Shown piece after piece: positions 2,113 through 62,192 of a DNA stretch of 64,000 nt (positions are counted from its first letter, which is position 1; the number at the start of each line of letters is the position of its first letter). The stretch is taken from positions 62,001-126,000 of the forward strand of contig JBEWZL010000213.1 in NCBI GenBank assembly GCA_045837725.1, written 5' to 3'. A model generated the notes under the pieces. That model ran no database searches. It was not told the DNA's origin and saw only the letters and a program-made list of their open reading frames with translations. This stretch comes from Vermamoeba vermiformis (lineage: Eukaryota). The position numbers and the translations under genes are program-made.

Positions 2113-2184
2113 GGCTGCATAGTATAATGGCTATTATATCGGATTTTGATTCCGAGGATCCCGGTTCAATTCCGGGTGCGGCCT
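2113..2184 (+). tRNA. trnQ: tRNA-Gln(UUG)
   Basis: Cloverleaf: acceptor GGCTGCA/TGCGGCC, D-loop TAATGG, anticodon stem TCGGA/TCCGA with loop TT-TTG-AT, T-arm CCCGG-TTCAATT-CCGGG. A T-run (Pol III terminator) follows. Confidence 0.93.
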
Positions 2185-14636: not shown

Positions 14637-17259
14637 TCAAGGTGAGTGTGGAAGAGGTAGCTGTGGTCCTCCCACAGCATTAGGAGCTACAAGTAAGGCT
14701 CTCTCTGCTTCAGCAAAGAATCTATCTAATTCTTCGTCAAAGTCACAGTCTTCTGACAATAAATACTTTTCAACTGCAGAGATGAAAAGATAATCATCTT
14801 GAGTGTTTGATGGAGCTATCTGTTACATATTAGTTTGCATTCTTATTTAACAAATTTAAACTTGCATTCTGAGCATAATCAAAGTCAATCACATGCACTT
14901 TCTGCAGAACTGAACACCATAGGATATTTTGTGGGTGCAAATCACAGTGTGAGTATCCAAGCAAGTGCAGCTGGAAAACAAACTCTCTAAGCTGTGTCAT
15001 TATTGTCTGTGCATCAGTAATGTCAACTGGCCGGATCAATGAGGCTAAAGTAGCACCCTCCATGAATGTTGTTAATAAACATGAATGTCCAATAACTTCA
15101 CCACTGAGTAGAAGACATGGAATGTTATCAAATTTGACCAGGTCATGAAGAGCCTTCATTTCTTTTTCAATTTTGTCATGGTTTGAACTCATCTTCAAGA
15201 TGCAGGTCTTTCCTTGATAATTGACTTTCAGGACAGCTGTCACACTGTCCAGTTTCAGTGGCTCAAGCAAAGTGACTTCTGTGCATTTGTCTGGTAGTGA
15301 TTTGACTTCAATTGATGGGCCAAGTTCATGAGAAAATACATTGACTTTTCTCTCTACTTTGACTTTAGAAGCCATACGCCACAAAAGCAAGTAAATAACT
15401 TCTAATATTTCTTCTGGTTGTTCAACACTTAGGTTGCCATATTTGCAGGACTCATTGCATGCCACTACAATGATTTTTTCAGATGTAGTCCAACCATCAT
15501 TATGTGGTGTTATCCAATTAATGCCAAATCTTCCATTGAGATCTGTAACAATAACAATCAATTCTTCAAAATTGGAGGCCTCAGTTATCCTTTTCATTGT
15601 TAATCCATATGCAACATCATAATACTTTTTGAATGCATCTAAAACCTCCTCTTGAAAATTAGACTTAACATCCCAATATAATCGGGGTGCACAATGATTT
15701 CCTTGTTCAGAGAGATACTTGTTAAACCTGATAATAATTATTTGTGTGAAACGAAGTTTGAGTTGCTTACTGCTTTCTCCATTCTCTCTCAGCTTCAGGC
15801 AAGTTGCTTGTAGCACTCTTAGTTGGACCCAGCTCTAACATAGGCTTGGGTTCAGCAGAGTCTTCTTCAATCTCACCTTGCTTCTGCAACACAATGTCAG
15901 CAAATCTCAAACATAATGCAGCAAATACCTCAGATCGGTACTTTTTCCTTGGTATTGATGGGCTATTCTCTCGCTTGCGTTTTCTCCCACCAACTTGTAG
16001 GGTTTCCAATGTGGACAGAACATCAGGAACTCCTGAGAGATTGGAGTTGCCCATCTGAGATACATAGTTGGAACAATTTGATGGTAGAGGCAGTTCTGAG
16101 AGTACATAAGCCAATCTCAAGGCCTTTTCATTGTGAGTTGCATCATAATTACACAACTGAGCTGCTAGGTCTTGCTTTTTTTTTGCAGAGATGCTGTTGT
16201 ATTCATTCTTTACTGCATCTTCCCCAGTATCTCTTAAGTGCTGAAGAAAATCTTTGAACTCCATTTGGGAAGCAAATTTGGCAATTGTGGCCACGTGATC
16301 TTCATTCTTCACTACAGAAGATCCTTTTGGATTTATAATGACGTTGTATCTTTTTTTGCCGATGTTTGAGTAACGGGTACGTGCAACATTCCTTTCTTGT
16401 ATCTCGCGTTCGCGTTCAACCTGTTTAAGTTCAAACTGTTGACGCAGCTCTCGTTCGCGTTCAGGCCATTCAAGTTCAAACTGTCTTTCGCGCTCAACCT
16501 GTTTAAGTTCAATCTGTTGACGCAGCTCTCGTTCGCGTTCAGGCCATTCAAGTTCAAACTGTCGTTCGCGTTCAACCTGTTTAAGTTCAATCTGTTGACG
16601 CAGCGCTCGTTCGCGTTCAGGCCATTCAAGTTCAAACTGTCGTTCGCGTTCAACCTGTTTAAGTTCAATCTGTTGACGCAGCGCTCGTTCGCGTTCAGGC
16701 CATTCAAGTTCAAACTGTCGTTCAATCCGTTGACGCAGCGCTCGTTCGCGTTCAGCCAACTGTCGTTCGCGTTCAGCCAACCGTCGTTCGCGTTCAGCCC
16801 GTTCAAGTTCAAACTGACACAGCTCTCGTTCCAACTGTTGCCGTAGCTCTTGTTCAAGCTCGTCCTCCCTCTTATACTTTTCGAGGAGCTTTGCTTCTAA
16901 ATTATTCTAATTAGAAACTCGAATTCGAAAAAAATATTGCTACCCGATTCAAATTACCCTCGTTTGGATTCCAAATTAAAATAATTACAATTAAGAATTT
17001 TCTGGGCGTGGTAGTCCTTACCTCTAACTGACCAGAGAAAAGAAATAATAATAATTATTCCAAATTGAATTAATTTGATTCTCAAATGCGCAGGGGGAAT
17101 TTGAATTAGGTCAATATAATTCCATATTTCAATAATAAAGGCGCTATATACTAAAGTAAATCAAAATACGAATTATAGACGATTATCATTTCGTAAATCC
17201 GGATCAATTGGTTTCAAAGAGAACACCGTACCGTCTCCTTCCAGGGGAATTGCCGACAT
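14637..17259 (-). CDS. Coiled-coil repeat + atypical protein kinase (Crinkler/effector-like accessory gene)
   Basis: ORFs 15767-16834 and 14830-15816 join through a GTAAGC...TATCAG intron. Kinase motifs CILK..EKE, HCDLHPQNIL and VIDFD. A GC-AG intron at 14820-14865 gives the last exon. The 5' exon (ATG 17259) is tentative. Confidence 0.7.
16409..16800 (-). repeat. Coding tandem repeat: 4 x 78 bp (26 aa RQFELEWPERERxLRQQxELKQVERE) plus ~3 x 21 bp (AERERxL)
   Basis: Near-identical repeat units are directly visible in the DNA and in the translation. Confidence 0.95.
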
Positions 17260-18975: not shown

Positions 18976-21900
18976 ATGGAAAAGAACGACCAGCAAAACA
19001 GGTATGTACGCAGTAGGTCATTTCCTGTAAACACGATCCAGTCGTTGCAAAAAATATTATTGGTTAGTTTAAATAATTTGATTAAGCTTTGATAATATTA
19101 GTGATCCACTGCCCGAGGTAGAGGAGGAGGTTGCTTCGATCCAACAAGTAAGTCTTGATTTTTGCAAGATTTTTAATTCTTTAGGCCTCTGTTTGCGTTA
19201 ATATTAATTTGATAATATTTAGAATACAAATGAAGTCCAAATATCACAAAAATCAACGCAATATCGATTAGCACCGTCCACGATCGGCCACTATTTCCAT
19301 CTGTCTTGTGATCGCTTTTTAGCGTTTAAAACTAGCGGTATTGATTCAATTAGATGGTGCTTTAAGGTAATTAATTTTAATTATTAATTAATAATTGCTA
19401 AGGAATTAATTTATTCCTATTCTTTCAGGACGGTGACGTTTGGAAGACTTACACGCGCGAAGAAAGCGTTTGGATCGAAATGGCGTATTTAAATAATGAA
19501 AAGAAAATTACTTTATCGAATGATAGAACTATAGTATTCAACGAGCTTACAGAAACGAAAAAATCGAAGGATCAAGATCCAGCCGAGTCTAAACCAGTCA
19601 GACGCGGAGTTTGGTTCTTCGAAAACGAGCAAAAAAATCTCGTGCCTTTGTCTGATAGCTTGGTAGCCGAGATTGAGAATGCCAAGAAAAGCGAAGAAAA
19701 GATGTCAAAGCTCGCTGAGGAGTTCAAAACCGTTGAAGGCTTGGCTATGAAAATCAATATTAAAGATAATATTGTCATGATTAAGAAAGAGGAGGACAAG
19801 CTCGTTGAATTGAAATTACAACGAGGACTTTCTGGCGAAGATGAAGTTAAAGACGTTATTGGTAAGTGTCACCCTCGCACGAGTCAAAAAATAGGCCAAA
19901 CCATAACTAATTCCAAATTAGGCAAGGCTCATATCGACAGTGGAGAAGTATGGGAAGAAACAATTGTGCAAACACTACTGACGGAGAGAGGCCACCAAGT
20001 TTTCACTGCAACGAGCAAAGATCAACTCGAGTTGAAACTTTCTGCGCAGAAAATCGAGTACCAAGAGTTCATTACGATATTGAAGACGTTCAAATACGAG
20101 CCTATTGAAGGCAAAAGATATTTCATTTATCAGCCGACCGTGATTATCCCGCAAGAATTCTACGAAAAGTTCAACGTGCCCTCGTACAAAGTCACTTTCT
20201 CGAATTGTTATCCTGACTTTATGGAGCTCAAATGCACCGAAAGTACGTTCATACTCGATCTATATTAATCATAGCTAATACTTGTTCGCAGGTGGTCAAA
20301 TTGAATTGACGGTCGTTGACGCCAAAGCCTCACCGAAGATGAAATTGTCGCATCGAATTCAAGTCGCCATGTACGCGCTGTACTTGGAAGAAGTGTTCAA
20401 GAAAGAAAATATCACGAACATAACTATTTCAACTAATGGTGGTGTTTGGATCAGACCTAATGAGGACTACACGTTATTCGATTTGACGCCTGTCAAACAC
20501 GTGCTTCAAGAATTTTTGAACTGCAATAACATGGACAGCAAACTTCGCTTGATTCTTAACACCGCACTTCACGAGGTTCCTTATCACCTCAACAAACGAT
20601 GCTCGGGATGTCCTTACTTGCCCATTTGTGAAGCACAGGTACGGCAGAAACTTTAATTAACGTCGTTTGATTAACTCACTTTGTATCACAGTCGAACAAT
20701 TCTTTGGATTTGTCATTGGTGAAAGGTATCACTAGACAACGAAAGCAATTTATGGTCGAGTTCTTGCAGAAGTTAGATCAATCGGGTGTCAAGAAAACAA
20801 AGAAATATCCTACTGGTACGTCCTTCAGTAATAATCATTGGCCAAAAAACATTAACGGATTTTTTATTAGTGAATTCTATGGAGAAGAAATCTATCAAGC
20901 GATTGAAAGTTTATGACATCGAAGACTGTCATCAATTATTTGGCGAGTTGTTCCCTAAATCTCCTGCGAGCTTCTTAGGTAAGTTTCCGCGGAACCTATT
21001 CAAGCACGGGTCGATCTGACATCTGACAGATATCAAGCCGAAAGAAAAGCCAAAGAAACGTACGCCAACCAAGGCTAAAGCAAGTGCCTCAGAACCGAAT
21101 ACTCCGGCAAAGGGTGATGCAAATCCAGCTGAGCCACAAACTCCGGTGAAATCAACGGGAACTGATCCAGCGACCCCTGCAACTCCGTCAACACCTCAAA
21201 CTGCAAACACTAACGCGCCCTTGTCTCCTACGACCCCATTCGAGTTGCGAGAGACTATTGGTAGCGCGACCAATGCTCAAGTTTGGATGACTAGAAAGGA
21301 GAAACCGACGGACGAAGTCAACTACGAGAACTTGCCGCAAAGTGTCAAGCTTGAATTATGGGACTTGAAGTGCAAAGTTGATTCGTGGATGACCAAAGAC
21401 ATCGTGTTCTATAACACCGCGGCTCCTGTAAGTAATTTTACCATGAGACTTTAGATGTTTTACTGACCTTGCTAGACGATGACTTCTGAGAGTGACATTT
21501 CAGCCGTGATCAACGTAATTTCTGATCCGCCTTCGGGATCGATTTGTGGCTGGTTCGTACACTTCTCTGTTACCACAAAGAGCTTTGTAAAAGAAGGCCT
21601 GTTGAATGTATTGGCTGAGCAAGTACTCGCTCAAAACGACTTATCGGTACGAATTCTTACGGACTTCTTGCGCAACTCAACTTTTTAACGCTTTAATATA
21701 TAGTTCGTTGAGAATGTGAAGATTGATGGTACCAACTCGATCTTTATTTACGACATGATAAGCCAGCCAAGTCCTCCTGATTCGCAATCTGTTCAACTGT
21801 TAGAAACGAGATTGGTCAAGACTTTGCACGCTTGTCTTAGCGTGCTTTCAATTTACAACACGAAGTACCGCGATGAAGAAGAGAAGAAGGGCAAAAAGCC

Positions 21901-24900
21901 TTCAGAGATCAACAAGAAGTTGATTAAGACCCAATTCTTCACATTTGACTCGTCAGAGTATTACACCTTGAAAAACGTGTTGTTTAGAGCTGCTTCGAGA
22001 CCTCTCCTTCAAGAACTGGCCAACGACCTCATTTTGACTTTAATTAACTCGACGGATGTAAGTTCAGTTCCCAAACTCGGGTATTTTTTGCTTAAAGTTA
22101 ACGAACGTTTCACAGGTGTTGTTCAATGACAAACAGCCGGACTTTGATAGCACGCCTGAATATCCCATTATTGTGCTTAAGAAAGAAATCGACTCCGTTG
22201 TGTCGGTACCATTGCCATTCAACGCAGAATTCAGCGAGTATGTCGCTTCGTTTGGCGGTGATCAAGAACCAGCGCTCAACGCGAAAGAAATTCTCGCCTC
22301 GTGGTACTTGGGATTCCCTGTTAAAGAAATTTCAGCTTTATACAGAAAACGAGCTGAAACCCTTCAATCACTCGTGTTTGGTACGTACATTCATGTTTCA
22401 TGAAACAACTTATTTCTGACACGTGTCAAACAATAGCTTTTGAAAAAACGATTGAAGAGCGCAATCCTTTGGTCATGCCAAGAGCAACGCCTCCCGTAAG
22501 TTTTTTTCGTCAATACAATATTCAATTTTGCTGACGTGTGTTAGTTTTTTATGCGCACTGCAATGGACTTCCAACACCCGTTGTTATCAAAACTTGCGTT
22601 CGTGGTCAAGTTCGAACAGTACATCGCTGGTGCTAAGCGCTCGAACACTCGCAGCTCATTGCTCACAACGATGATGGACAAAACACTCGTTGCCGACAGA
22701 GTTCTGATCGTCAAATTGCACGATGATGGAAAGAAGGCCAAGCCTGAAGCGCCAACTATCAATGCACCTGTCCCCGTTGAAATTCCCGAAGACTTGAGCA
22801 GCTCAAAGTCACCTACTGCCAAAGTGCTACGACCACGCAGAAGATCAACAAAGATCGATAGTGACGAGCTCAATAGCGATCCAGCCCCGTCACAAGACAG
22901 TACGGAAGTCAAAGTTGAAATCGTCGTGGAAGCGCCAAAGGAAAAGATTGAAGAACCTGTTGGTGAGGTACAGCAACAAAGGGTTCGTTACGATCTCGGA
23001 AAAGTAGGAATTAGGAATCGGAATTAGGAATCCGAACCGTTTTTCATTAGGAACCAAATCAAATTTCAGATATTTAAATTCGGAATGAAAAGGTTTTCGA
23101 AATCATATTTTTGATCCGCACCCAGCTACCACTTCTAACCATTTATATAGATAATACTCAACTAAATATGTTATTAGACGCCATAATTTGGCGAAATTGA
23201 GGTCTGCCATGTGGCCTCTTTGACGGAAACGGATACGACCCAATCTGGTTCCTGACGTATTTCTAAACATATATTTGTAATATTTAAGGCCAGCTGAGTG
23301 ATTTTCACTCCATCTCATCGAAAAGTTATTACATTTTCGATAAGAAAACTGAGCCACGATTCAAAACATACTTTCAAATTCAATTCGTGACAAAGTCGGA
23401 ACCAAATTGTAGGAAGAGGTTTTCCGTTCCGACTCCTAAAATTTTCCTAATTCGTAACGGACCCGCAACAAAAGGAACGAGAGGCACATTTGGACGACGC
23501 CAAACTCGAAGAGAGCTGGAAAGAATTGCAAGTTATTTTCCCGGACAAAGACGTTAGTGAGCTGAAAGCACTTCTCATCGCCAATCACGGACAACTTCAA
23601 ATCGTCGTGGAATCTCTTCTCGGAGAGAAAGGTCCTGCTCCCGAAGCCGTTGTTCATCCAGCGGAACAATCCGATGATAAGACACCTGTGAAGACTGCAC
23701 CAAAGAAACGAGCAGCAGCTGGATCGGCTAAGAAGAAAACACCTGCCAGCCGCGCAAAGAAATCAACATCGTCGGAAGAGACCTCCGAAGACAAGCCAGT
23801 TGAGGACAAGAACAATTGGGTCAGATTTGATGTTGTTGACTTTTCCGAGAACTTGCGTATTGAAGTCGATAGAGCTATTGGCACTTATAACTGGCTCATT
23901 GCACGCGTTGACGAGCGAGGTGTCAAAGATTTGCTCAAGTACAACGACTTTGTCAACCGTGAAAAATGGGGTCCTGCATTCGGTACGCAAAAAAATTCGC
24001 CTTATATCTCATTCTTATTAATATAACGTTCTATGAACATATTAGGTACTACTGTTGCATTTGCCAAAATAGAAAATATCGATGAGCGCAACAAGACGAT
24101 TGGTGTCAGCGCGAAATTTCAATCGTACGCGTCAGGAGTGTTCTCGTCGGACTGCTATTACATCATGACTGAACGACACGCTGATTTGTTGTCCAAATAT
24201 GTCTTAGAAACTTTGAAAGAGGTCGACTTGATCGATGAACTGCAAAAGGTCCTGAAGCCTTATTTGGAAGACAAACAGCTCATCGCGTGGTTGGAGACAG
24301 CTTGCTTCGAGCTATCACAGTTGCCTAAAAAGGATAAAGCCACACTGTTGGTGCCACCCGAGTTCAAGACGCAAATGGCTCCGCTCGAAATTCCGTTGAA
24401 ATTCACGGTCGCAAAGGGCAAGAAAAAATCAGAAGATGACGATGACGCGAGTGCTGTCCGATTTGCATCTGTGCTGCCTGATGCTGCGATGCATTTCCGA
24501 GCTATTTATCTTGCCATTCAAGAGCTGTACGGCATCATCACGACCAGCGGCTTGTATTTGCAGCTTTTAGAAGACCCAATTCTATGGGGCCGCAATTCAC
24601 CCGAAGGAAAAGAAGCCGTTGATTCACCTTCGTCAAAGTAAGTCCTATTTCAGTCTCATAACGGTCAATTAATATAATATTTCCTTATTAGGAAAGCGTT
24701 GCAATTAGTTGAAGACGTGTCAGGAGGTCTTTTCACTGAAGCACAAGCGAATGTGTTCAAACAAGTCGTCAACAAGAAGTTGCAATTGATTTGGGGTCCA
24801 CCTGGCACCGGCAAAACCCACTTCTTAGCCACGACTGTTGTGTTGTTAGCCGAAGCTCATCGCTTTGCCCAAGTAGCGCCCGTTGAAAAGACCGCAGAAA

Positions 24901-27208
24901 CTACGTCAAGTGAAGCAACGACAGCACCAGAAAAACCTGTTGAAGCTGCACCAAGCCCTGCTGAGACGAGCGACGGTCCCAAACCAGAGCTCGAAAAGAC
25001 TGAAGAAAAGAAAGATGAACCCGCACAGGAGAAGCCCGAAGAACATAACCAGGAGCTTGTGCAAGAAAACAGCGAACCAAAGAAAGACGAGACCTTGCCA
25101 GAGAAGGCAGTGGAGTCCGTGCCTGAAAAGCCCGAGGACAAGAAAGATGATGTTGTCTCGCAGGAAAAGACACAAGAGCACGTGCCTGAAAAGATTGAGG
25201 ACAAGAAAAACGAAGTTGTAGCAGAAAAGATTGAGGACAAGAAAGAGGACGTACCAGCCAGTGAACAACAACAAAGTGAGTCAAAGCCCGCAGAAGTCAA
25301 GCCCAAGCCTGCTTCAGCAAAGGGCAGAAAGCCTAAGGCTGCCTCGACCACTGAAGAAAATCAACAGCCCAAAGGTGAAGGCCAAGAGTTCAAAGTCCTC
25401 GTCGTTGGCTTCACGCACTCATCTATTGACAACTTGATCGAAAAAATTCTCGAAATGGTCGGCGAGTTCGATAAAGTCAAGAAAGACAAGTCCGTTGATT
25501 TCAAACTGCCTGTCGCTCGTTTAGTCAAGCGCGACGCTGACACTTCAGACATGGTAAGTGACATTAACAAGCCCTTATATTCCACTTTATTAATGTTTTT
25601 ATGATCAGCCCGAGAGTGCCAACTTTGAGCTATTAAAGGCAGAAAATGCAGCGACGGTGTTAAGATGGCTCAACAACAATGTTCAGTGCGTGCTCGGTGG
25701 TACTGTTTGGGCCGTGAGAAAAGTCTTCAAAGAAAGATTTAATCAGCCTCCGAGGTACAATAATATAACACTCGATGAGCCTTATTCTAATCATATTGTA
25801 GGTTCCATATGGTCATTGTTGACGAGGCCTCGCAGATGTTACTTTCTGACGCGTATCATCCGTTACGCTACTTGCTCAAAGACGAAGGCCGCTTAATTCT
25901 TGCAGGAGACGACCAGCAATTGCCTCCCATTATCAACGGTACCATATTAATATACTATTATAATAGAAGTGGCTATAATAATAACGCGGTTTAGGTGAAT
26001 ATCCCGAGCTGCCGCCTTCCGAACCAGTCTTGTTCAGCTCAATTTTCAACGCGTTCAGACACAAAGACGTCAACCAAGAGTGCACGAGCATGTTGATCGA
26101 GAACTGGCGCATGAACCAGGTACGTAATTACATTGTAATTGTAAGTTGCAAGGAAAAACTAACGATCCATTTTTAGTCCCTGGTCGAGCTGCCTAGCAAC
26201 ACTATTTACAAGACCAATGATCCGAAGATGAAATATCACGCTGCTAATGATAAAATTGCCACGCAATCGTTCCCGTTGAAAAAGTAAGACCGAAATATTA
26301 TACCTGCGAATGACACCTACTTACGCATAATTTTTAGACTCAACGACGATCAGTTTTATTACATCTCTAAGGGCTTTGAAGCAACAGAGATGGTCTCTCA
26401 TCCATTATTGCGTCTATTTTTGGCTGGCGAGTCACCATTGGTCGTAGTCTTGTTGAAAGTTGATGCTTATTCGGAGATCGGAAATTTCCCGCACTCGGAT
26501 CTGATTGCTGCTTTTACTTCCGCCATCCGAAAGACATTCGATAAGGTACCTAAATATATTAATTGATTACTGTATGGGTATTAATTGTTTGTTAAGGCTG
26601 AGGGAACGAACGAAGATAATTTATGGCGTGAAAAACTTCACATTGTTGCACCACATCATATTCAACGCCAAGCTATTTTTAACGCAATCTACGGATCTAA
26701 GTACGTCCCACTCTCTTTCTAAATAAGGAAATCCTAAACTTACGGTTTTTGTCTTATTGTAGGAAATGGAACCAAGAGTGGCATAAGGAAGCTGAGCCAT
26801 TCATTGAAACAGTTGAAAAGACACAAGGCCGTGAAGTTGATTGCACGATTGTTGATTATGGATTGCTGAACACATCGCAGATCAAAAACGAATTGAGATT
26901 TATTTACAGCAGACCGAGATTGAACGTCTCGTTGACACGTGCCAAAAAGAAGTGTGTGGTCATTGTCTCGGATATTTTGTTGTCCGCAGCTATTGAGCAC
27001 ATCTTTGACAGCAAAGAGACGGAGCGTGGATTCACCCACTTCCAGGTACGCAAAAAAACTTTATTGGATTGTTTAGGACTAACATGTTATGTATTAGAAT
27101 CTGGTTGACTATGCTAAAACCAAAAACTCACTTTATTCCCTTGCACTTTCTGAATTGCCAGATACTATTGAAAGTCTACAGAAAGATCCATTCTTTAAAT
27201 CTGGATAA
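18976..27208 (+). CDS. Large PD-(D/E)xK (RecB/Cas4-like, Fe-S) nuclease - SF1B (DNA2/UPF1-like) helicase with WWE and CUE domains (many exons)
   Basis: Nuclease motifs: LSCDR, PDF...VVDAK...QVAMY, CSGCPYLPIC. Helicase motifs: WGPPGTGKT, FTHSSIDNL, VDEASQ, AGDDQQLPP, ENWRM, TVEKTQGRE, RLNVSLTRAK. Stop TAA at 27206-27208. Confidence 0.85.
22981..23464. mobile_element. Non-autonomous TIR DNA transposon (MITE-like, 484 bp) with 8-bp TSD, inserted in a coding exon
   Basis: Ends GGGTTCGTTACGA... and ...TCGTAACGGACCC (12/13 inverted match, with weaker similarity extending further in). Flanked by GCAACAAA at 22973-22980 and 23465-23472. No transposase ORF. Confidence 0.88.
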
Positions 27209-27370
27209 ATTTTAATCAGAACTTTCGACAAGAAACTCTGTAGAAAGTCATTCACAAATGCACAAACCTGCTGTCTAATGGCAACTTTGCTTAAATAAAA
27301 CTGTAACAAGTCAAAGAGCAACTAAAGTACTTTTAGAAAAGTATTGTGTAAGCAAATTTTACATGATTTT

Positions 27371-39840: not shown

Positions 39841-42800
39841 ATGCAATCTAATAATAATCCAACGAGTTCTAATACGCCGGCCAATAATGTTCCCAATGGC
39901 TCGAGCAATGAACAAAGTAATCGAAGCTACACGCCTAAGCCTTCAAGGGAGCCAGGCAATGGCCCAGATAATGTAGATTCGTATGACCAAGGTCCTGGAT
40001 CAGGGTAAGTTTGTTTTTTCGCGGTTACCAGAACTAATCCATTCTTTCAATAATCATATATATTTGTATATTTGCGTTTATAATTACATATATATGGTGT
40101 ACTAATTATATTAGGGGTATATGAATTTTTAAAAGCATTACTAAGCCCAAATTTTGTTTATTATAATATTCTGGATTCTTCGCCGACTATTCCAAACATT
40201 TAAAAAATGAAATACCGTCATATAATAACATATTATAATTATATAGAGGAAGATATGGTGGTCCCTACTCGCGGGACTTCAGAGATCGCGACGATCGAGG
40301 CCGATCGAGGTTTACCGGGTAATTCAATTATTATCGAAGTTTATGAATAATACGTACTTACATTATACTATTATAGTAGCTTTAATTCATATAGAAGACC
40401 TTCTAGACCTCGTGATGAGCTCAGTCCTCCTCCCGCGAAAAGAAGAAAATTAGACGGTGATGATCCAGACCTGCCGCCATTCAAAAGATACGATGATTCA
40501 CCACCTTATTATAACAACAATAGATATGGCAGTCATTATAACTCATATGATAGGCAATCAGATTGTGAGTATCGAATATTAAGCAAACTACGATAATTTT
40601 CAAAAGTTATTGATCTGGTTAAAATCACCGGTCTTATAATTCATTCGTGACATTATATAGTTGCCATATTAATATACGTGATGCTAATTATGCTTATAGT
40701 TAACAATAAGGACCGTTATTTGTCGAACTCGGGTCCGCCATCTCGACCGTACAACAACTACAATAACCAAGACAAGCCTTTTTATCAACGCGACAGAAAT
40801 TTCCGCGAAGATTACAGACCACGTCAGAACTTTGGGTATGCAAATAGAACAACGATTTATATAGTAGTACTAACTCCTTATAGCAACAAACGTTTCTTCT
40901 CACGCGGCGGAGGTCCTCATAAAATGGGCCGTGGCGGAGGTTGGTATCAAAACAGAGATGACCGCCACGAAGGAGGAGGCTACAGAGACACGCCTTATGA
41001 ACGACGAGACCGCTGGGCGCCACGTGGTCGATATGACGACCGAGGTGGATGGGACAGAGACAATTACCGCAACGAAAACAAAGATCGCTGGAACAATTAC
41101 AACCCACGGTACAGACGCGACGATCGGGACAACAACGATACCGGCCGTGAAAGTCCTCGTGGCCGTCGACTGTCAACTTCACGATCACGCTCTAGATCTC
41201 GTTCTCGATCTCGCTCCAGATCGCGATCTTACTCCCCGTCATCTCCGAACTACGGTGCATCTCCCAGTTCGCCGAGATACGCGCCCACATCACCTCCAGT
41301 GGCGTCTCGAAGTCGTAGTGCGTCACCAGCGCCATTAAATGCAGACAACAAATACGCACCTACTTCACCTGTCTACGCAAGAGAGCGTTCACCGCCACCT
41401 CTTAGGGCAGAAAACAGATACGCCCCGACATCCCCCACTTACTCGCCAAGTTCACCTGTGAGTACCTCACCTTACCGAGCAACTTCACCGCCACCCTATG
41501 CCCCGACTTCACCTGTGTACACTACCAATAGCACCCGACCAGCGGATAATAAGTATGGTGGACCTTCTTCGCCGAGTTACTCACGTGACCGCTCTCCTCC
41601 ACCACGCGAACAATCGCCACCGCGCATGCGTGACAGAGCACCGTTGTTACCACTTCGTGATCGATCACCGCCACCACGTGACAACTCACCTCCACCCAGA
41701 GAAAGGTCTCCTTATGTCCGCGATAGATCTCCGCCTCCACGTGGTCGATCTCCATTCAATCGTGATAGATCACCCCCTCCACGTGACAGATCGCCACGCT
41801 ACTCGCCTCCACGTTACTCGCGCTCACCTTCACCTCGTGGACGATCACCAATGCGCGACCGATCTCCGCCTCCTCGTCACGATTCATTCTTCGGAGGATA
41901 TCGACGACCATTCCAACCACGTGACAGAAGAAGTCGATCGAACTCACCTCCCCCAAGATCTCCGCCATACAGCCCACGAGGCCGTTATGGTCCCCCTCGT
42001 AACATGCCTGCACCGAGACCGATGAAGCCTGTGCCTACCAATTCGCTCAGCAACAGCGGTCCTTCACCGAGTCCCTCACCTGGTCTGCCAGACGCGTCCA
42101 AGAGCAATTCTTCGTCGCAGAAAACACCCACAGCGAGCCCTGTCAAGCCTGTAAATCCCAGCCCTGTCAAGCCACCCTTGTCCTCGCCAGTTCAATCTAG
42201 TCCAAGTTTCTCACGTGGCGCTGCGTCTACTTTGCGACATAGCGTGGCTGGCTCTCACCCAGCTGCCCCAGCTAACGGCAAAAGCGCTCGTCGTGACATG
42301 ATCTTGATTGAAATTGACAACAAAGACAACGAGATCATGAAGGCCATGAAAGAGCTCGAAGATTTGAAGAAAGAGAAAGACAGGCTGTTCAAGGTCTTGG
42401 CTGCTAAGAGAGAACAACTCGAGGCTGAGATGAAGAAAGCCAACGAGCCTAAAGAGCCAGTTGAAGAAGACAAAAAAGTTCCCACGCAATCTGCGGAAGA
42501 GCTGCAAAAGGCTGCCGAGCAAGAAGAAAAGAGATTACGCGACTCAGTCAGCGAACAAAGCAAGTTCGTGCAAATGGATATGGACGCATCTAAGCCCTTA
42601 TTCGAGCGCATTACGGAGTATAACAAGAAGATGGCCAGTTCAGCTTTGGATCCGCTCAAAAAACTGTTCCCGTTCGAAACTCCCAAGGCAGTCTTCCAAG
42701 GCAAAGAACTCTCAGTCAAGTTTAAACACCTCTCTGAGATGCCTTTCTTGATGGACAACTTCAAGGTCTTTGACAAACTACGCCCTGCGTTGATCCGAAT

Positions 42801-45800
42801 CCGTCAAAAACGCGTTGTGGATGCGCGCGAACGCGAGAGAAAGATCCGCGACAAGTACGTTAACTTGGTGCACAAATGGAAAAGACGTTTGCAACAACAA
42901 AGACAGCTGCGTCGTCAACAAAAGCTTGAAGAAGAAATTAAGAAGCAAGCTGCTGCTGATCGAGGTAAGTTTTCAGATCGAGCCGCTGATCGGATCGGAT
43001 GTAGCGAGTTCTTGCTTAGTAAGTGGTGACCCGAACACGATGTTGCAAAGCGTCTCGGGCACGACCACACTAACAAGAATGCACCGCTTCCCGTCCGATC
43101 AGCGAAGTTAAGCTTGTTCAGGCCTTCTTAGTACTGGGGTAGGAGACTACCTGGGAATCGGAGGTGTTGTGCTCTTTACTTTTTGTTTTTGCTTCGTGTC
43201 ATAATACCCGACACTCACTATTATTTTTAATAGAAGGAAAAGGTCGAGGACGTGTTATTGGTCGTCGATTGACTTTGAGATCTTCTGCCAAGGCGATCAA
43301 CAGCAAAGATATGCCGGCGCAAATAGATCTTGGAGAAGAAGGCGAGAGTTATCAATACAGCGCACAAGAAGAAAAGCTTAGGCGTTTGCAAGAAAAGAAA
43401 GACTTCGAGTCTCGTTTCTTGCGAACACTCGCCATCGTGCCTGCCATGATCGTAGATCCAGATCGCAAGAAGCTGAAGTTCATCGATAACAATAGACTAG
43501 TAGAAGATAGTATTGCTGCTTACAAGGAATATCGTTCACGACACTTGTGGTCCGAGGAAGAAGAAGAGATTTTTGTCAAGTACTATCTCAAGTACCCCAA
43601 GGACTTCGTTAGGATTGCTTCGTACTTGCCTAACAAGTCTACCAAGGACGTCATCTACTACTATTATAACCACAAGATGCGTCTCAACTTGAAAGAACGT
43701 GCCCGTGCTGAAGACGAGGAACGAAGACGAAGCGATCCGACACGTGGCAGGTACCTCGATGAGACTGAAATGCACACGTTTGGCACGTCTGTCGATTGGG
43801 TGAATGGCTCGAGTCGACGAGGATCTATTCGTCTCTCAGACAAGCCTGCTGTCAATTACTCAGAGCGCACAGCCCTCCCCGTCATGACGCCCCCGCCTCC
43901 GATGGACAGAAGAAGACTTGACATCCCTGAAAGACCGTCTTCAGCCCCTGGTCCTGACGAAGCAACGCGATGGTCTGAAGCAGAAAAAGAATTGTTCAAG
44001 ATTCATTTTGCCAAGCATCTTAAGGACTTCAAGGCCATTTCAGACGAGATCAAAACGAAGAACATTGCGCAAGTCAAGAACTTCTATCATAACAATAAGA
44101 GGAAGTTAGGGCTCGATAAGATCCTCATGGACGCTACAAACGCCCAGGCTGCCGCAGAAAAGGCTGCCGAAAAAGCAGCGGCGCAAGCTCAACAAGCCGT
44201 AGCAAAACCAGCCCCACTGCCTGTAGTACCAGCCATTCCAACAAGCAACACGCCACCGCCGGGCGCAGGTGCAGCTAAAGGCCGTCGAGGCAGACCTAGA
44301 AATACCTCGAAATCAGTTACACCGACAAACACAGCGCCATCTGCTTTTGCGATGCCAACAGGTCCGACTGTAATGACGCAGCAACAACCGAGTCAACAGG
44401 CCAATCTCAACGTTGTGTTGCCAACATCAGCTCCACAGCCTTCAACTCCTACCACGAGCCCTCCAGTCCAACGTGCCGCGACACCTGTCGTTAAAGAGAG
44501 CACCTCGCCGCTGATCCAGCCTATGAAAGCCCCTTCCAAAGACAGCAACGACAAGATTTTGACGAGCTCGCACTGGACAGACGGTGAAAAACAGATGTTT
44601 TTGCAGTACCTCACCGTTCACGGCAAGAACTGGAAGATGTTGTCGGATCTGATTCCCACGAAGACTGTCAACCAGATCAAGAACTATTACCAGAACTACC
44701 GCAACAAGCTTAACCTCGATGAATTGTTGCCCGAAAGTGATCGCAACGCTGGCCGTGGTCGCGGCAAGAAACGCGGCAACTTGAGCAGACCTCGCGGTCG
44801 TCCACGCAAGCCCAAGGACGAAGAATCAGGTGCCTCCACACTTGCTTCACTTGATGCTCCAGCTCGTCGTTCTCGCATCTCATCGCTGTTGAATGACTCG
44901 GATACATTGGAAGACATTCGAGCCAGCGACCTCCGTGGCCATGACGATGACGAGGACAGCATGATGGGTACGTAAATACACTTGATAATGATTAGGGATG
45001 TATACTAACGATAGCATTTAGATGACAACTACGAAGATGACGACGAGGGCGGTGATGTTATGGACGTGGATTACAGCGAGAATAGCGTCATTGAGAACGA
45101 AACCAGTCAAGACGTCAAGTCGTACAACAACGCGCACGATGAACGAAGCGAGAGAGAAGTGATCACGAATGAGAACACTAACACTAGTGTCAACAACACT
45201 AACAGCAACGCTGCCTTTACTGACGCTGAGCAAATGGACACGAGTGACTCGGTTGCACAGACCAAACAAGTCGAGCCAGCCGTTGAGACCTCTTCTCAGC
45301 CGAAACATGAAGACAAGCCACAAGAGAAACCTGAGCAACAGCACACTGAAGCTAAGGTTGAACACGTCGAGGAGAAATCGCACGACGTGCTTCAAGTGCC
45401 CGAACAAGTGTCAGAACAAGCCGCCCCAAAGTCCGAACCAGCTCCCTTGGCTGAGCCTGTGTCTGAAGCTCCAAAGGCCGAGCCCCTGGTGCCAGAGAAA
45501 GCTGTTGAAGAGAATTCCTCGAGCGCTAAAATGACCGAGGACGTTGAGATGTCTGAAGCTCCTCAAGACCAAGCTGAAGAACGTCAAGAGGCTGAAGTCC
45601 CAGTTCAAGAACAGCCCGTAGCTGAAACTAGCGAAGTTCCTGAGCAGCATAATGCACAAAGCAGCCAGCCCTCAGTGCCAGAACAACACGTCGAAGTCCC
45701 TGCAGATAATACTAGTGCTCCTGTGGTCGCTGCAAGTGAGCCTGAAGCGTTGGAAAAAGATGACAGCGCGACGGTGCCTAACGCTGCTGTTCAAGAAAGT

Positions 45801-48065: not shown

Positions 48066-50401
<2,336 letters not shown>

Positions 50402-56817: not shown

Positions 56818-59800
56818 TTAAATTTTACTAGTGAGGAATTTCTCTCGATCGATAGCAAATTGTAAATCAAAGTGATCAACGGATTCTTGTAAGAATTGAA
56901 GGATCCGTTCGCGAGATTGAAGATCTTGTTTGATTTTCCTTTCGTAATTTCGGGTACTTTGAGAGCTTACGATGTAGGGTGAGCCATGACCAAGCAATGA
57001 TAGCAATGATTCGTGCATTTGCGAAACTGTGAGATTCTTCGCGCGGATCGTCGCGAGTAAATCCAGCAGATTTGAACGAAGTTGATTAAAAATAGCATTT
57101 CGATCTTTTGAGCGATTTGAGCGAGATTTAAATCTTGGTGCGGACCCATCTTCATCTTCATTCGAATTCTCCTGCTTCTCTAGGCGAGGTTTTGAAATTT
57201 TCTGAACGTGATCTGAGCTTTGATCTCGCGCTCTTTCCTTCTTAATTGAGACTTCACTAGGGGGCGGTAATTCAATCAATTCTGAGCGTCTTTGATGAGC
57301 TTTGGATAGTTTCGAAGCGTTGACGTAAGATTCTTTGCCAGATTTCGGATCTTTGATCGCGTAGAGCAGGTTGTTGATTTTCTTCGTGATAATGTAAGGG
57401 CCATTTCTTCGTTTTTGGAATTTTTCTGGAATGCCAGGCTCAGGTACGCTGATCTCCATATAGACTTCTTCGTTCTCGTCGAAGGTAATGTCGGATCGCT
57501 TCTTATTATAATTGCGTTCTTGTCTCTCGGTTGCTTTTTCACTATTGATATCGCGTTGAGTATAAATTTCGTCAAATCGGCGTAATAATTCTCGTGCGAA
57601 TTCCTGGATTGATTCTGGATCTCCATATTCTTTGCGGAACATGTCGACGTTGTAGGGCATTTTCAGGAAACGGCCAAACATGAGTTCTGAAGGTGCAAAA
57701 CCAGTGCTTGATTGAACGACGTTCTGATAAGCCAAAATAACGGGTCGTAGATGTAGATCCCAATCGTCGGCCTCAGAATTGATGTAATTTTTCAACATTT
57801 CAATCAGTGTTTGATTGAATTTTTCAGCAAGTCCATCCGTTTGAGGGTGATAAGCAGAAGTGTTGACTTTCTTAACGCCAAGGACTTGATTGACGTGAGC
57901 GATGAGTTCTGACATGAAGTTCTTGCCTCGATCCGTCAAAAGTACGTCAGGAGCACCATAGCGGCAGATAATTTCGTTGACGAAAACATTAGCGATTGTT
58001 TCTGCTGATGCATCGGGAATAGCAAAGGCTTCTACGTATTTTGTATAGTAATCAATGATGACCAAGATCCATTGATTTCCGCGAGGAGTTGGAGCGAACT
58101 GTCCCATCAAATCCATGCCAAGAATATTCCAGGGATAACGCGGTGTAATTGTCTGCATTTTTCCAGGCTTTAATTGACGTTGGATCTTTCGTTTACTGCA
58201 TTTCGTGCACGATTTGACCCAGTTGGTGACATCGCGAGACATGCCATTCCAAAAATAGCGCTGCATGACTCGAGCATAAGTCTTTCCAATACCAAGGTGT
58301 CCTCCTGAGAAAGGCGAGTCGTGGCAGATTCGCAAGATCTCTGGTCGTAATTTCATCGGGACAACCAGTTGTTGAACAGAGCCTTGATATTTTCGCGCGT
58401 AGGGGAACCATGTTCGATATAATAAACCGTCTTCGTCAATGAATAGGTCTTTGGTTTCAATGCGAATTCGTTCTGCTTTAATAGCGTCGGATGCGGGTAA
58501 TTCTCCATCTTCTAACCAAGGATAGTACGTCGAAAGAACAGGATCTTCGCGTTGAAGCTTGGCAATTTCACTAGCAGCGAGTTCAGGCGTTGGAATATCT
58601 TCAAGTAGATTGACAGGTGCGAGAGAAATTTCTCGTTCTGGATCAGAAACTTGAACGATTGGCGGGCGCGAGAGAGCATCAGCGTTGCCATTGGCTTTTC
58701 CAGGACGGTGAATGATGTTAAATGTGTAGTCTTGAAGCTTGAGGGACCATCGCATCAAACGGGACGTAGTCTCTTTGTTGTTCATTAACCATTGAAGTGC
58801 TCTATGATCAACTAGTGCTTGAAATTCGCGAGCGATCAAATATTGACGGAAATGTTTGCAGGCTCCAACAAGTGCGAGGCATTCCTTTTCAGTCGTTGTG
58901 TAATTTCGCTGAGCGGGATTAAGGACTTTACTCCAGTAAGCAATGACAACTTCTCGACCATCTCGATATTGCTGCAATACTGCGCCAATACCAACGTCAC
59001 TAGCATCAGTACATAGAATGAAAGGTTGATCGAAGTCGGGAAATTGCAAGATCGGATCAGATGTCAATATTTTCTTCAGCTTGTTGAACGCTTTCGTATG
59101 ACGGGCAGTCCATTGAAATTTGACGTTGTTAGAAGTCATTGAAGTGAGAGGTTCTGCGATTGTCGCGTAATTATCGACGTATCTTCGATAATATCCACAA
59201 AGTCCAAGGAAAGTTCGTAATTCCGTCTTTGAAGTTGGAGGCTTAGCATTAAGGACTTTCGCAACGTTGTCTGGATGAGGAGCTGTTCCTTCGCGAGATA
59301 CTTTGTGACCCAAAAATAGAATTTCTCCGCAGAAAAATTGAGATTTCTTCTTGTGGATCTTGATATTCGCGTTGCGAAGACGTTCGAAGACAGTTTCGAC
59401 GTGTTGAAGGTGTTCTTCAAAGGATTTCGAGAAGATAATGATATCATCAATGTAGACCAAGCAGATCTCGAGCAACAAGCCAGTCATGAGCAGATCCATC
59501 ATTCGCCGGAACGTAGCGGGAGCGTTTGTTAATCCAAAAGGCATTCGATGGAACTCAAACAGTCCCATATGAGTAATAAACGCGGTCTTCTTGCGATCTT
59601 TCTTGTTAACTCGGACTTGCCAATATCCTTTTCTGGCGTCAAGTGTTGTGAACCAGATCTTGCCAGATAGTGCGTCGAGCGAATCTCCAATGTGAGGCAG
59701 AGGGTAGGCATCCTTCTTAGTGATCTTATTAAGGCCTCTGTAGTCGATACAGAAACGCCAGTTGTCTTTGTCTTTGCGAACCAAATGAACGGGAGCACCC

Positions 59801-60912
59801 CACGCTGACGTAGAGCGTTCGATGACGTGATCTCGGAGCATTGCTTCAATCTCTTTGCGAATCACTTCTTTCTGCTGTGGCGTAGTGCGACGGAGCTTCT
59901 CACGAATTGGTTGAACTTCGTCTTTGTTAATGAGCGGAATTTTCAGTTCGACTTCAGAAGTGGCTGTGAAATTCGGACCAATTCCTTCTTCTAGTATGTC
60001 TTTGTAGCGATAGATGAGGTCCTTGACTTGATGTAATTGATCAGCGGAGCAAGCGGAAGCGGAAAAATCCATGTCACGGAAAAATTCTTCCGTATCAACA
60101 GTCGAAGCGTTAATGACATTTATAGACGATGCCTGAGCAGCTAACGAGTCATATACAACAGTCTCTTGGAACGGAGTCAAAACGCCAATAAGAGTACCAG
60201 CGCGAATAGTTTGAACTCCACGAGTCATATTGATGAGATCGATAGGCATGACACCATTGCGAGAGGCAGTGAGAATACGACCAACGGTAATTCCACCAGT
60301 GGCGTTCTGCTTCTTATTGGGCTCCAGTAGACCAGACAGGGAGCCATGTTCGAAAATGACGTTGACAGCAGCTCTAGTCTTCGGATCCAGAGTGATATCT
60401 TCGTCGGCATAAACTTTGAAGTGCTTCGTAGTTTTGCGCGGGACAGTGATGAACTTGACTTCAGTGAGTTCGGGATCGGAAAGTTGGTGCTTAGCACGGT
60501 CCAATGTGAAGGCATATTTGATGAGAAAATCGTCACCAATGATGGCTTGGTACTTTCCATCGAGATCGGGGCTGATCATAACTTGGTGGTTGTAGATTAA
60601 CGGTCCAAGTTTGAGATCCACTGAAATTTCGCCGATGATGCGAACGACAGCGTCGTTAAGAGTGCTTGCACCAGCGATAGTTCGTTGAATAGGGGGTTTG
60701 GTAGTGAGGGCGTTGTACGTATCAGTGCCAATCAATGTATAACTACTTCCGCTGTCAACGAGAGCAGTCACCTCGAGGTCATTGATTTTCAGCGCTACGC
60801 GGGGCAGAGGTTGGCGTTGGGTTGATTTAATGGTCGCTTTGCGTTCTCTCTTAGGCTCTTGCTTCTGCGCGACAACAGGAGAGCCTGTCTTATTGTCGCT
60901 TAGAAGTTTTCC
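56818..60912 (-). CDS. pol: Pol polyprotein (protease, RT, RNase H, integrase), reached by a -1 frameshift
   Basis: LVDSGS, YIDD, TDASD, HHCC (CHDS..GHLG..CTKC) and the DDE core (MDLMG, TDRG, AEKFN). The frame is open upstream to the slippery site at 60906-60912. Confidence 0.95.
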   Translation of the reverse strand, partial: GKLLSDNKTGSPVVAQKQEPKRERKATIKSTQRQPLPRVALKINDLEVTALVDSGSSYTLIGTDTYNALTTKPPIQRTIAGASTLNDAVVRIIGEISVDLKLGPLIYNHQVMISPDLDGKYQAIIGDDFLIKYAFTLDRAKHQLSDPELTEVKFITVPRKTTKHFKVYADEDITLDPKTRAAVNVIFEHGSLSGLLEPNKKQNATGGITVGRILTASRNGVMPIDLINMTRGVQTIRAGTLIGVLTPFQETVVYDSLAAQASSINVINASTVDTEEFFRDMDFSASACSADQLHQVKDLIYRYKDILEEGIGPNFTATSEVELKIPLINKDEVQPIREKLRRTTPQQKEVIRKEIEAMLRDHVIERSTSAWGAPVHLVRKDKDNWRFCIDYRGLNKITKKDAYPLPHIGDSLDALSGKIWFTTLDARKGYWQVRVNKKDRKKTAFITHMGLFEFHRMPFGLTNAPATFRRMMDLLMTGLLLEICLVYIDDIIIFSKSFEEHLQHVETVFERLRNANIKIHKKKSQFFCGEILFLGHKVSREGTAPHPDNVAKVLNAKPPTSKTELRTFLGLCGYYRRYVDNYATIAEPLTSMTSNNVKFQWTARHTKAFNKLKKILTSDPILQFPDFDQPFILCTDASDVGIGAVLQQYRDGREVVIAYWSKVLNPAQRNYTTTEKECLALVGACKHFRQYLIAREFQALVDHRALQWLMNNKETTSRLMRWSLKLQDYTFNIIHRPGKANGNADALSRPPIVQVSDPEREISLAPVNLLEDIPTPELAASEIAKLQREDPVLSTYYPWLEDGELPASDAIKAERIRIETKDLFIDEDGLLYRTWFPYARKYQGSVQQLVVPMKLRPEILRICHDSPFSGGHLGIGKTYARVMQRYFWNGMSRDVTNWVKSCTKCSKRKIQRQLKPGKMQTITPRYPWNILGMDLMGQFAPTPRGNQWILVIIDYYTKYVEAFAIPDASAETIANVFVNEIICRYGAPDVLLTDRGKNFMSELIAHVNQVLGVKKVNTSAYHPQTDGLAEKFNQTLIEMLKNYINSEADDWDLHLRPVILAYQNVVQSSTGFAPSELMFGRFLKMPYNVDMFRKEYGDPESIQEFARELLRRFDEIYTQRDINSEKATERQERNYNKKRSDITFDENEEVYMEISVPEPGIPEKFQKRRNGPYIITKKINNLLYAIKDPKSGKESYVNASKLSKAHQRRSELIELPPPSEVSIKKERARDQSSDHVQKISKPRLEKQENSNEDEDGSAPRFKSRSNRSKDRNAIFNQLRSNLLDLLATIRAKNLTVSQMHESLLSLLGHGSPYIVSSQSTRNYERKIKQDLQSRERILQFLQESVDHFDLQFAIDREKFLTSKI

Positions 60913-61980
60913 TGGTCTTCGATGTCCATCTCTTCGTCGCAGTCAGGGGCGGCGTCTACAACGTTGAGGTTGTTCTTGAACTTCGAAGGAGTTTGAGGGT
61001 CTCGGCCTTGAGTCTTTGGGCGGTATGGCGTGTTCGGGGCATTGTACGTAGGAGTGCGTGAAGGAGTGCGATGAGGGGTCGAAGGAGTACGTTGCTGATT
61101 GGTGTTGTTCTGCACAGGAGTCGAAGGAGCTTGGTGTTGTCTTTGGGGTGAAGAGGGCTGTTCATCGTATTGAGATTGACCACGATTGTTGTTGTTGCTG
61201 AAGTAGCGGGATGGAGTAGATTGACCACTCTTCGGACCATGGTTTTGACCGTGTGACTTCTTCTTGCCTTGATCAGGGTTGCTCTTTTGCTTCGGTTTCT
61301 CGTTCTCGGTGACAGTGACAGTGCGCTGAGTTGGTTTGTTGAACACAGATTGCGAGTCTTGTTGAATTCGATACGCGTGAAGAGCCAGATCCGTGAGGTT
61401 CTGAATTTCGCCATATTTACCAATGAGATGACGGGTAATGTTCTTGTGGAGGCCTTGTTTCGCCATGTCCAGCGTCACTTCGTCATCGTTGAGACCGGCA
61501 AGGTAGCGGAGGGTCTCAAAGCGGTAAAAATAACTGACGATCCGTTCGTTGGGGCGTTGAGTAATCTCACTGAGCATTCTGAAAGCAGTGCTACGATCAT
61601 AGTCTTCACAAACAAGATCCATAACGATCTTACGAATCTTTTCGGGTGTATCAGCATCAGCGTCGTCGTTTGCGATCAGCACAGCAGCGTATCCAGGCGG
61701 CAATTTCAAAATCATGGCACAGCAGAAATCTTCCATGAGCCATTTCTCCTTGCGAGCCAAATAACAAACAGTATCAAACCATTCATCAACTTGAAGAACG
61801 TTGGGAATTCCTTCGGCAGATCGAGATTCGGTTGGAAAATCGGGAACGTTTTGAAGCTTGAGATCGCTCTTTCTGACAAGGGGGCTCTTCTCCTTCTTGC
61901 TGGGCTTGAGGCTGAGGTGGAACAAATATAACGGGGCGATTAGCCTTGCGGATCGGCGTACGAAAGATCCGTTGAGCCAT
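60900..61980 (-). CDS. gag: Gag (ATG at 61980; needs a +1 shift near 61880 to enter the main gag frame)
   Basis: Retrotrans_gag-like QRPNERIVSYFYRF..AKQGL. The first ATG after the PBS is in a different frame from the gag body. Confidence 0.75.
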
Positions 61981-61989
61981 AAAATTTTT

Positions 61990-62002
61990 GGGATCGGAAC
62001 CA
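61990..62002 (-). promoter_or_regulatory. Primer-binding site (TGGTTCCGATCCC), likely complementary to a tRNA-Glu 3' end
   Basis: Begins with TGG 2 nt inside the 5' LTR. Its complement ...ATCGGA-A-CCA resembles tRNA-Glu acceptor ends; the tRNA identity is inferred. Confidence 0.7.
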
Positions 62003-62004
62003 AA

Positions 62005-62192
62005 TGTAAAGATAAGACTATTATTTGATAATAAAGAGAGAATGATTTATTTACGGGTTTACAAGTGTATTTATATTTATCGTGGGGAAGATCCCACGAT
62101 TCACAGAATTAGGTACGCTCGTGCGTACCATGGCATCAGCGTGCGTACCAGGGATGCACGCTGATACCAATATTACGAGCAAGCTCGTTACA
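62005..62192 (-). repeat. 5' LTR
   Basis: Identical to 56575-56762. Contains TATAAATA and AATAAA on the minus strand. Confidence 0.97.

Follow-up and report, generated by a model that had tools for sequence, protein, structure and literature searches.

The 64,000-nt window analysed here (positions 62,001 to 126,000, forward strand, of contig JBEWZL010000213.1 in the Vermamoeba vermiformis assembly GCA_045837725.1; all coordinates below count from its first nucleotide) contains one large plus-strand gene at about 19400-27200, whose predicted product combines WWE and CUE domains with an SF1 helicase. A transposon-type insertion of 484 bp occupies positions 22981-23464 within a coding exon of this gene (Table 1). 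The element is a young copy of a non-autonomous class II (cut-and-paste) transposon of the miniature inverted-repeat transposable element (MITE) type. Its insertion is polymorphic, as the same sample also contains an allele that lacks it, and it belongs to an active low-copy family that generates 8-bp target-site duplications (TSDs). We infer its effect on the mRNA from the surrounding reading frame and splice signals, and favour, at a probability of roughly 60%, a mostly disruptive or leaky allele that arose through a polymorphic exonic MITE insertion, and not a specialised introner, the term used for transposon families that create introns.

A 484-bp element in a coding exon

The host gene was delimited by translation and by Pfam matches to WWE (E = 4e-7), to CUE (E = 2e-4, 21.2 bits against a cut-off of 21.1) and to the SF1 helicase core (AAA_19/AAA_11, plus AAA_12 at E = 9e-10). 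Its 19 introns were placed by eye and checked by the open translation of the resulting coding sequence (CDS). The open reading frames (ORFs) on either side of the element, upstream from 22545 and downstream at 23451..24026, share the same phase, and the element together with one TSD amounts to 492 nt, or 164 codons. When the 19 introns and positions 22983-23474 are removed, 2,086 open codons remain, in line with the initial annotation, which had held that removal of the insertion restores the frame. The alternative donor named there behaves as described as well, since removal of 22968-23474 keeps the frame with five codons fewer (2,081 open codons). With the element retained, the frame ends at the TAG codon 23025-23027, 15 codons into the element. 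The element sits in a low-complexity linker, 18 codons or so ahead of the CUE domain. ORFs of at least 100 aa cover 64% of the window, so that an exon hit by an element is in itself unremarkable. Further downstream in the same gene (24880-25380, plus strand), about 170 codons of low-complexity sequence with many E, K and P residues interrupt the helicase core after Walker A.

The left terminal inverted repeat (TIR) of the element is GGGTTCGTTACGA and the right TIR is TCGTAACGGACCC. According to the repeat finder, their cores are complementary at 12 of 13 nt, with one mismatch, and can be extended to 23 nt at 83%. A perfect 8-bp TSD, GCAACAAA, lies directly outside both ends (22973-22980 and 23465-23472), and the size, TIRs and duplication that had been proposed by initial annotation were all recovered at the same positions. 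Inside the left end are two tandem copies of the 13-mer GGAATTAGGAATC (23007-23032), of which inverted copies are found near the right end; this layout is usual for cut-and-paste elements, and the 13-mers may represent motifs of the transposase-binding type. The GC content of the element is 37%, compared with 48% for the flanking exon. A scan for this architecture, defined as a 13-nt inverted repeat (at most one mismatch, arms 60-3000 bp apart) with a perfect 8-bp duplication immediately outside it, returned a single structure in the window, which is the element at 22981-23464, and none in 200 first-order Markov simulations. The two longest ORFs of the element have no Pfam match at E up to 1, and the element has no Rfam match; an RNA gene and a coding sequence were both considered as identities for it and dropped because these searches were blank. 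No DNA transposase was found among the 20 large ORFs of the window that were scanned.

These properties are those by which MITEs are recognised, namely TIRs, a TSD of fixed length, small size without a transposase gene, several insertion sites and a known empty site. An 8-bp TSD fits hAT, P and Merlin elements, some Mutator-like elements and Zisupton. The terminus of the present element begins with GGG, which we take to be unlike the terminal consensus of hAT elements, although the 8-bp TSD itself fits that group.

Empty sites, alleles and further copies

Empty sites were found both in relatives and in the sample itself. A protein search with the downstream exon retrieved ORFs from four relatives (94, 87, 87 and 80% identical), and all four are uninterrupted across the junction of the window's two ORFs. 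One of these ORFs is carried by the metagenome contig L001, which is collinear with the host gene at about 75% nucleotide identity and which has neither the element nor an intron at the insertion point, 60 nt there corresponding to 552 nt in the window. Where the two can be compared (L001:3330-6740 against window 22058-25608), the introns of L001 occupy the same positions and exceed those of the window about 2-4 fold in length, at roughly 100-220 nt versus 47-63 nt. No repeats or related elements of note were found in L001, including its longer introns.

A second allele is present in X2, the DNA run that is the most likely source of the assembly. There, a contig bridges 22922 to 23463 through 27 other letters, which represent the same exon without the element. 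This empty-site allele carries two substitutions beside the site and an in-frame deletion of 21 nt upstream, and because of these substitutions and the in-frame indel of its own it is regarded as a distinct allele or strain and not as an excision product. It is covered at a depth of 140, while the filled allele reaches about 350, and a variant at 22331 that is linked to it occurs in a similar ratio (121/449). Between 22300 and 24700 in X2, the empty-site allele and the 22331 variant thus each account for about 27-29% of total depth, a share that points to a genome present in more than two copies or to several strains being mixed in the sample. As would be expected of a recent gain, there is no intron at this site in the four relatives' ORFs, in L001 or in the second allele, each of which reads through it. 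The claim that the element landed in an exon is therefore borne out, and the ancient intron that initial annotation had named as a reason to reject its reading was looked for in orthologues and is absent from the site.

The element is present at other places as well. Loose ends at 22981 and 23467 in X2 lead into a second copy, which has an unrelated left flank of 255 nt ending in GCAGTAAC and a right flank beginning with GCAGTAAC. Thus, the TSD measures 8 bp in both copies for which the two flanks are known. In X4, a water metagenome that contains a relative of this organism, three exon pieces diverge from the window by about 1-4%, and one contig contains the first 202 nt of the element, with four differences, behind yet another flank. 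The 8-mers that precede the left end all start with GC in these three cases (GCAACAAA, GCAGTAAC and GCCAAATT, the last deduced from a single flank), which may reflect a target-site preference. X2 and X4 also share a 33-nt stretch of the right subterminal region (23420-23452) that lies between identical foreign flanks in both and is probably a remnant or the end of a related element.

Near-identical copies are few, as the interior of the element has a depth of 416 in X2, barely above the 350-355 of its flanks. Within the 64-kb window there is no further copy: BLASTN returned the element itself and short chance matches, and the TIR motif, at up to two mismatches, was found at the two element ends and at three unrelated sites only. 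The 23-nt TIR pattern, which covers both ends, gave no match in metagenome contigs or viral contigs, and the 26-nt subterminal repeat gave none in viral contigs.

Candidate splice sites and local introns

Introns whose boundaries could be checked served as the yardstick for the splice signals of the insertion. The 19 introns of the host gene measure 47-63 nt, and all begin with GTA followed by A or C at position +4. Sixteen of them have G at +5, and they end in YAG in 18 cases and in AAG in one. Three further introns, of 63, 219 and 152 nt, were fixed in the gene for the poly(A)-binding protein (PABP) through collinearity with P0007, a full-length protein from a 2.2-kb contig; these all begin with GTA and end in AAG, TAG and CAG, respectively. 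Intron GC content ranges from 24 to 51% and is mostly about 30%. The position matrix for splice scores was built from the 19 host-gene introns, and leave-one-out minima were used for comparison. An iterative harvest with a position weight matrix over all ORF pairs had yielded 475 'introns', most of them spurious, and was dropped in favour of the 19 and 3 checked ones.

The PABP gene itself (48084-50398, plus strand) is 98% identical to P0007, which has 27 member sequences; this match suggests that public metatranscriptome-like data include transcripts of the organism or of a close relative. Among its 120 best listed matches, PABP of this genome has about 36-47% identity to the best named homologues and up to 55-57%, over partial coverage, to unnamed transcriptome or contig proteins. 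The genome also shows a Zn2Cys6 gene and fungus-like intron signals.

The splice-like sites listed by initial annotation are all present in the letters (GT at 22983-22984, CTAAT at 23447-23451, AG at 23473-23474 and the alternative GT at 22968-22969). Their quality differs. The TIR donor GTTCGT scores 3.2 bits, compared with 6.2-13.0 for the 19 true donors (leave-one-out minimum 3.5), and its T at +3 contrasts with the A found there in all 22 local introns. The exonic donor GTACAG at 22968 scores 5.1 bits, which is the 95th percentile of all GTs. The acceptor at 23474 scores -1.8 bits, the 24th percentile of all AGs, and the leave-one-out minimum of true acceptors is -0.5. A stronger acceptor at 23412, out of frame with the downstream exon, would compete with it. 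The candidate intron would measure 492-507 nt, compared with 47-219 nt for the 22 local introns. In the predicted RNA fold (z = -3.5), the 13-nt TIRs are paired, and GTTCGT and GTAAC would be buried in the stem. Taken as a set, the candidate splice signals are ill suited to the host spliceosome, with GTT in place of the GTA that opens 22 of 22 introns and with low scores for donor and acceptor. The splice register is also not constant across the two copies compared (n = 2). Just past its duplication, copy 2 has TG and not AG, and its first AG lies inside the TSD; the AG register, and with it an intron equal to the element plus one duplication, thus belongs to the site of copy 1 and not to the element.

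Public RNA and protein data were consulted for a spliced form. Two RNA runs with the same species label, X21 and X23, place 0 and 3 reads, respectively, on a 2.4-kb part of the gene, a coverage too low to bear on splicing. Public protein collections, searched at lengths of 101-322 and 323-2000 aa and thus below the full-length products of more than 2,000 aa, yielded no spliced form; the four matches are genomic read-through ORFs in the range of 323-2000, with none at 101-322 aa. In a representative protein library there are two clusters, neither of them full-length, and no spliced form.

Table 1. Features of the host gene and of the insertion, in order of position (a slash marks the splice position)
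Feature	Positions	Strand	Basis
Host gene, at least 2,086 codons in the span, WWE/CUE/SF1-helicase (AAA_11/AAA_12), 19 short introns of 47-63 nt	19429..27210	+	translation and Pfam
Candidate exonic donor GTACAG, 5.1 bits, like the genuine donor GTACAA at 25755	22968..22973	+	matrix score
Left TSD copy GCAACAAA	22973..22980	.	repeat finder and architecture scan
Non-autonomous TIR element, MITE-like, 484 bp	22981..23464	+	repeats, GC, no Pfam/Rfam match
Left TIR, 13-nt core 22981-22993, extendable to 23 nt	22981..23003	+	repeat finder
Candidate donor GTTCGT in left TIR, 3.2 bits, T at +3	22983..22988	+	matrix score
Tandem 13-nt subterminal repeats, two copies, GGAATTAGGAATC	23007..23032	+	repeat finder
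First in-frame stop (TAG) with element retained	23025..23027	+	translation
Cryptic acceptor TAG/G, 7.3 bits, within element, out of frame with downstream exon	23411..23412	+	matrix score
Inverted copies of subterminal motif, right end	23427..23456	+	repeat finder
Right TIR, 13-nt core 23452-23464, one mismatch to left core	23442..23464	+	repeat finder
Branch-like motifs CTAAT (23447-23451) and GTAAC (23453-23457), the latter in the TIR stem	23447..23457	+	sequence, fold
Right TSD copy	23465..23472	.	repeat finder and architecture scan
Candidate acceptor AG (AAG/G), first AG past the branch-like motifs, -1.8 bits	23473..23474	+	matrix score

Elsewhere in the window, a Ty3/gypsy-type retrotransposon lies on the minus strand at 56818-62108, with an open pol ORF of 1,374 aa that contains protease, reverse transcriptase, RNase H and integrase; a 402-aa ORF upstream of it may be gag, judged by position only. 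A dispersed 5S rRNA gene (43057-43175, plus strand, 104.7 bits) directly follows a long SR-rich and heptad-rich ORF at 40651-43029, and one tRNA gene was found at 2113-2184 (plus strand). The minus-strand ORF at 15767-16906 encodes several tandem charged repeats of about 26 residues, with motifs such as ELEWPERER...LKQVERERQF.

Competing explanations and known systems

The favoured explanation may be set out as follows. A transposase encoded elsewhere would make a staggered 8-bp cut, and the element would thereby have been inserted into the linker of the WWE-CUE-SF1-helicase gene, about 18 codons before CUE. An mRNA read straight through the insertion would halt 15 codons into the element, and most transcripts of the filled allele would probably be truncated or aberrantly spliced. 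At best, weak sites might permit a leaky in-frame rescue ending at the AG at 23474, for which the exonic donor at 22968 is a more plausible partner than the TIR donor at 22983. The filled allele would persist because it is recent and because an intact allele is present.

It is also possible, though we consider it doubtful, that the spliceosome removes the insertion in frame, from 22968 or 22983 to 23474, in a substantial share of transcripts. The gene would then stay functional at the price of a K-to-R change or the loss of five codons, and the insertion, an unproven candidate for a nascent intron, would represent the birth of an intron out of an ordinary MITE. A number of observations speak for this and weigh against a mostly disruptive allele. 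Two in-frame GT...AG pairs exist, and both leave the CDS open (2,086 or 2,081 codons). Each of the weak signals has a precedent among the 22 local introns: the exonic donor resembles the genuine donor GTACAA at 25755 in the same gene, AAG serves as acceptor in 2 of the 22, and CTAAT is likely the branch motif in two of them. The AG at 23473-23474 is the first one downstream of CTAAT and GTAAC. In the predicted fold, the donor at 22968, this AG and part of CTAAT would remain unpaired, with the donor and the AG close together, so that the TIR stem would cut the effective distance between them. Length alone is not prohibitive, since introns of 152 and 219 nt occur in this genome and the orthologous introns of L001 reach about 100-220 nt. 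From the TIR donor to its first downstream AG, copy 2 would likewise give an in-frame intron, of 486 nt. The filled allele is the major form in X2, at about 70%, and among published introner families there are some whose splice sites lie in the TSD or the adjacent exon and which gain or lose codons (PMC9860276). However, both donors and the acceptor score below nearly all of the 19 true sites, the intron would exceed all 22 local ones in length by a factor of 2-10, the TIR donor and GTAAC would be buried in a 13-bp stem, and the strong acceptor at 23412 would compete. The lack of a spliced form among public proteins adds little to this, since products of more than 2,000 aa lie outside the two length ranges searched. 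A narrower proposal seems rather unlikely, namely that in a deep-branching microbial eukaryote a low-copy polymorphic MITE is removed in frame, as a newborn intron, because the pairing of its TIRs places a pre-existing exonic GTAC donor beside the AG that comes first after the element.

A mostly disruptive insertion must further be set against the introner mechanism put forward by initial annotation, of which one part stands and another does not: there is a TIR element in an exon with in-frame GT...AG pairs, but its TIR donor is off-consensus, with T at +3, and its acceptor is poor. A specialised introner family, in which the left TIR would supply the donor and the right TIR the branch site in either orientation, with the acceptor taken from the target, is improbable. 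The symmetry of the TIRs would indeed provide GG/GTYCGT at the 5' end and CGTAAC near the 3' end in either orientation. In both copies with two known flanks, an intron running from that donor to the first AG downstream would stay in frame (492 and 486 nt), which has a chance of about 1 in 9, and the flanks of copy 2 (60% GC on the left, 47% on the right) are more exon-like (48%) than intron-like. An Aureococcus introner with an 8-bp TSD has also been described (PMC9860276). Such a family is nevertheless not established: only two to three copies were seen, none of them shown to be intronic, with one in the 64-kb window and an interior depth in X2 (416 against about 350 for the flanks) that leaves little room for more, and the 23-nt TIR pattern has no match in the metagenome and viral collections. 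The donor nucleotide at +3 is absent from the 22 local introns, the acceptor register differs between copies, and the copies seen fall short of the threshold of at least four similar introns (PMC9860276). Last, a repeat misplaced in the gene by the assembler is very hard to credit. It is true that the only DNA run covering the junctions may be the source of the assembly and is thus not independent of it, but true transposition is recognised by just what is seen here, a perfect 8-bp copy of the very exonic target, with the frame restored; in addition, depth in X2 is continuous through both junctions, and the second copy carries an 8-bp duplication of its own.

The two principal outcomes differ in what they would offer. 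Should splicing occur, the locus would present a brand-new intron in its filled and empty states together and would provide material for measuring the cost and efficiency of intron gain from a non-specialised transposon. If it does not, the locus is an ordinary transposon-disrupted allele, of use mainly because it gives evidence of a currently active DNA transposon family with 8-bp duplications in a little-known lineage. Were an intron indeed being born here, intron gain from transposons would need only a hairpin and cryptic exonic sites, and no specialised introner.

In the published accounts, introners comprise transposon families that create introns, many of which have TIRs and TSDs, and their splice sites derive from the element, the TSD or the neighbouring exon, with codons added or deleted in some cases (PMC9860276). 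In Micromonas, one splice site comes from the element and the other from the TSD (PMC11282704). Families range from 5 to more than 2,000 copies and were retained from four similar introns upward (PMC9860276), and curation requires consistent splice sites with RNA support (PMC12130899). The present element resembles the introners of Micromonas, Aureococcus, dinoflagellates and others in that it is a short non-autonomous TIR/TSD element in coding sequence and that element and target could each contribute one splice site. Its 8-bp TSD is shared with an Aureococcus introner, and its 484 nt fall within the published family medians of 30-654 nt (PMC9860276). In contrast to these families, it is known from two to three copies and not from 5 to more than 2,000, its own donor is off the host consensus, and its register varies at copy 2. 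With MITEs, as outlined in PMC11282704, it shares TIRs, a TSD of fixed length, subterminal repeats, small size and the absence of coding capacity. The introner-like elements of ascomycetes are similar in being repeated sequences proposed to create introns (van der Burgt et al., 2012); these families are described as lacking TIRs and TSDs (PMC9860276), whereas the present element has both.

By analogy with these systems, the element may be said to work like the raw material of introner families. The nearest parallel at a single locus would seem to be the splicing of maize Ds/dSpm elements, of which exon insertions in waxy, adh1 and bronze were reportedly found to be spliced as introns by Wessler and colleagues from the late 1980s to 1992. 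The organism and the element family differ. The maize examples and the present case both concern a single class II element with an 8-bp TSD in an exon, and in both a donor at or near the terminus together with a nearby acceptor could make the allele leaky and alter the protein only slightly.

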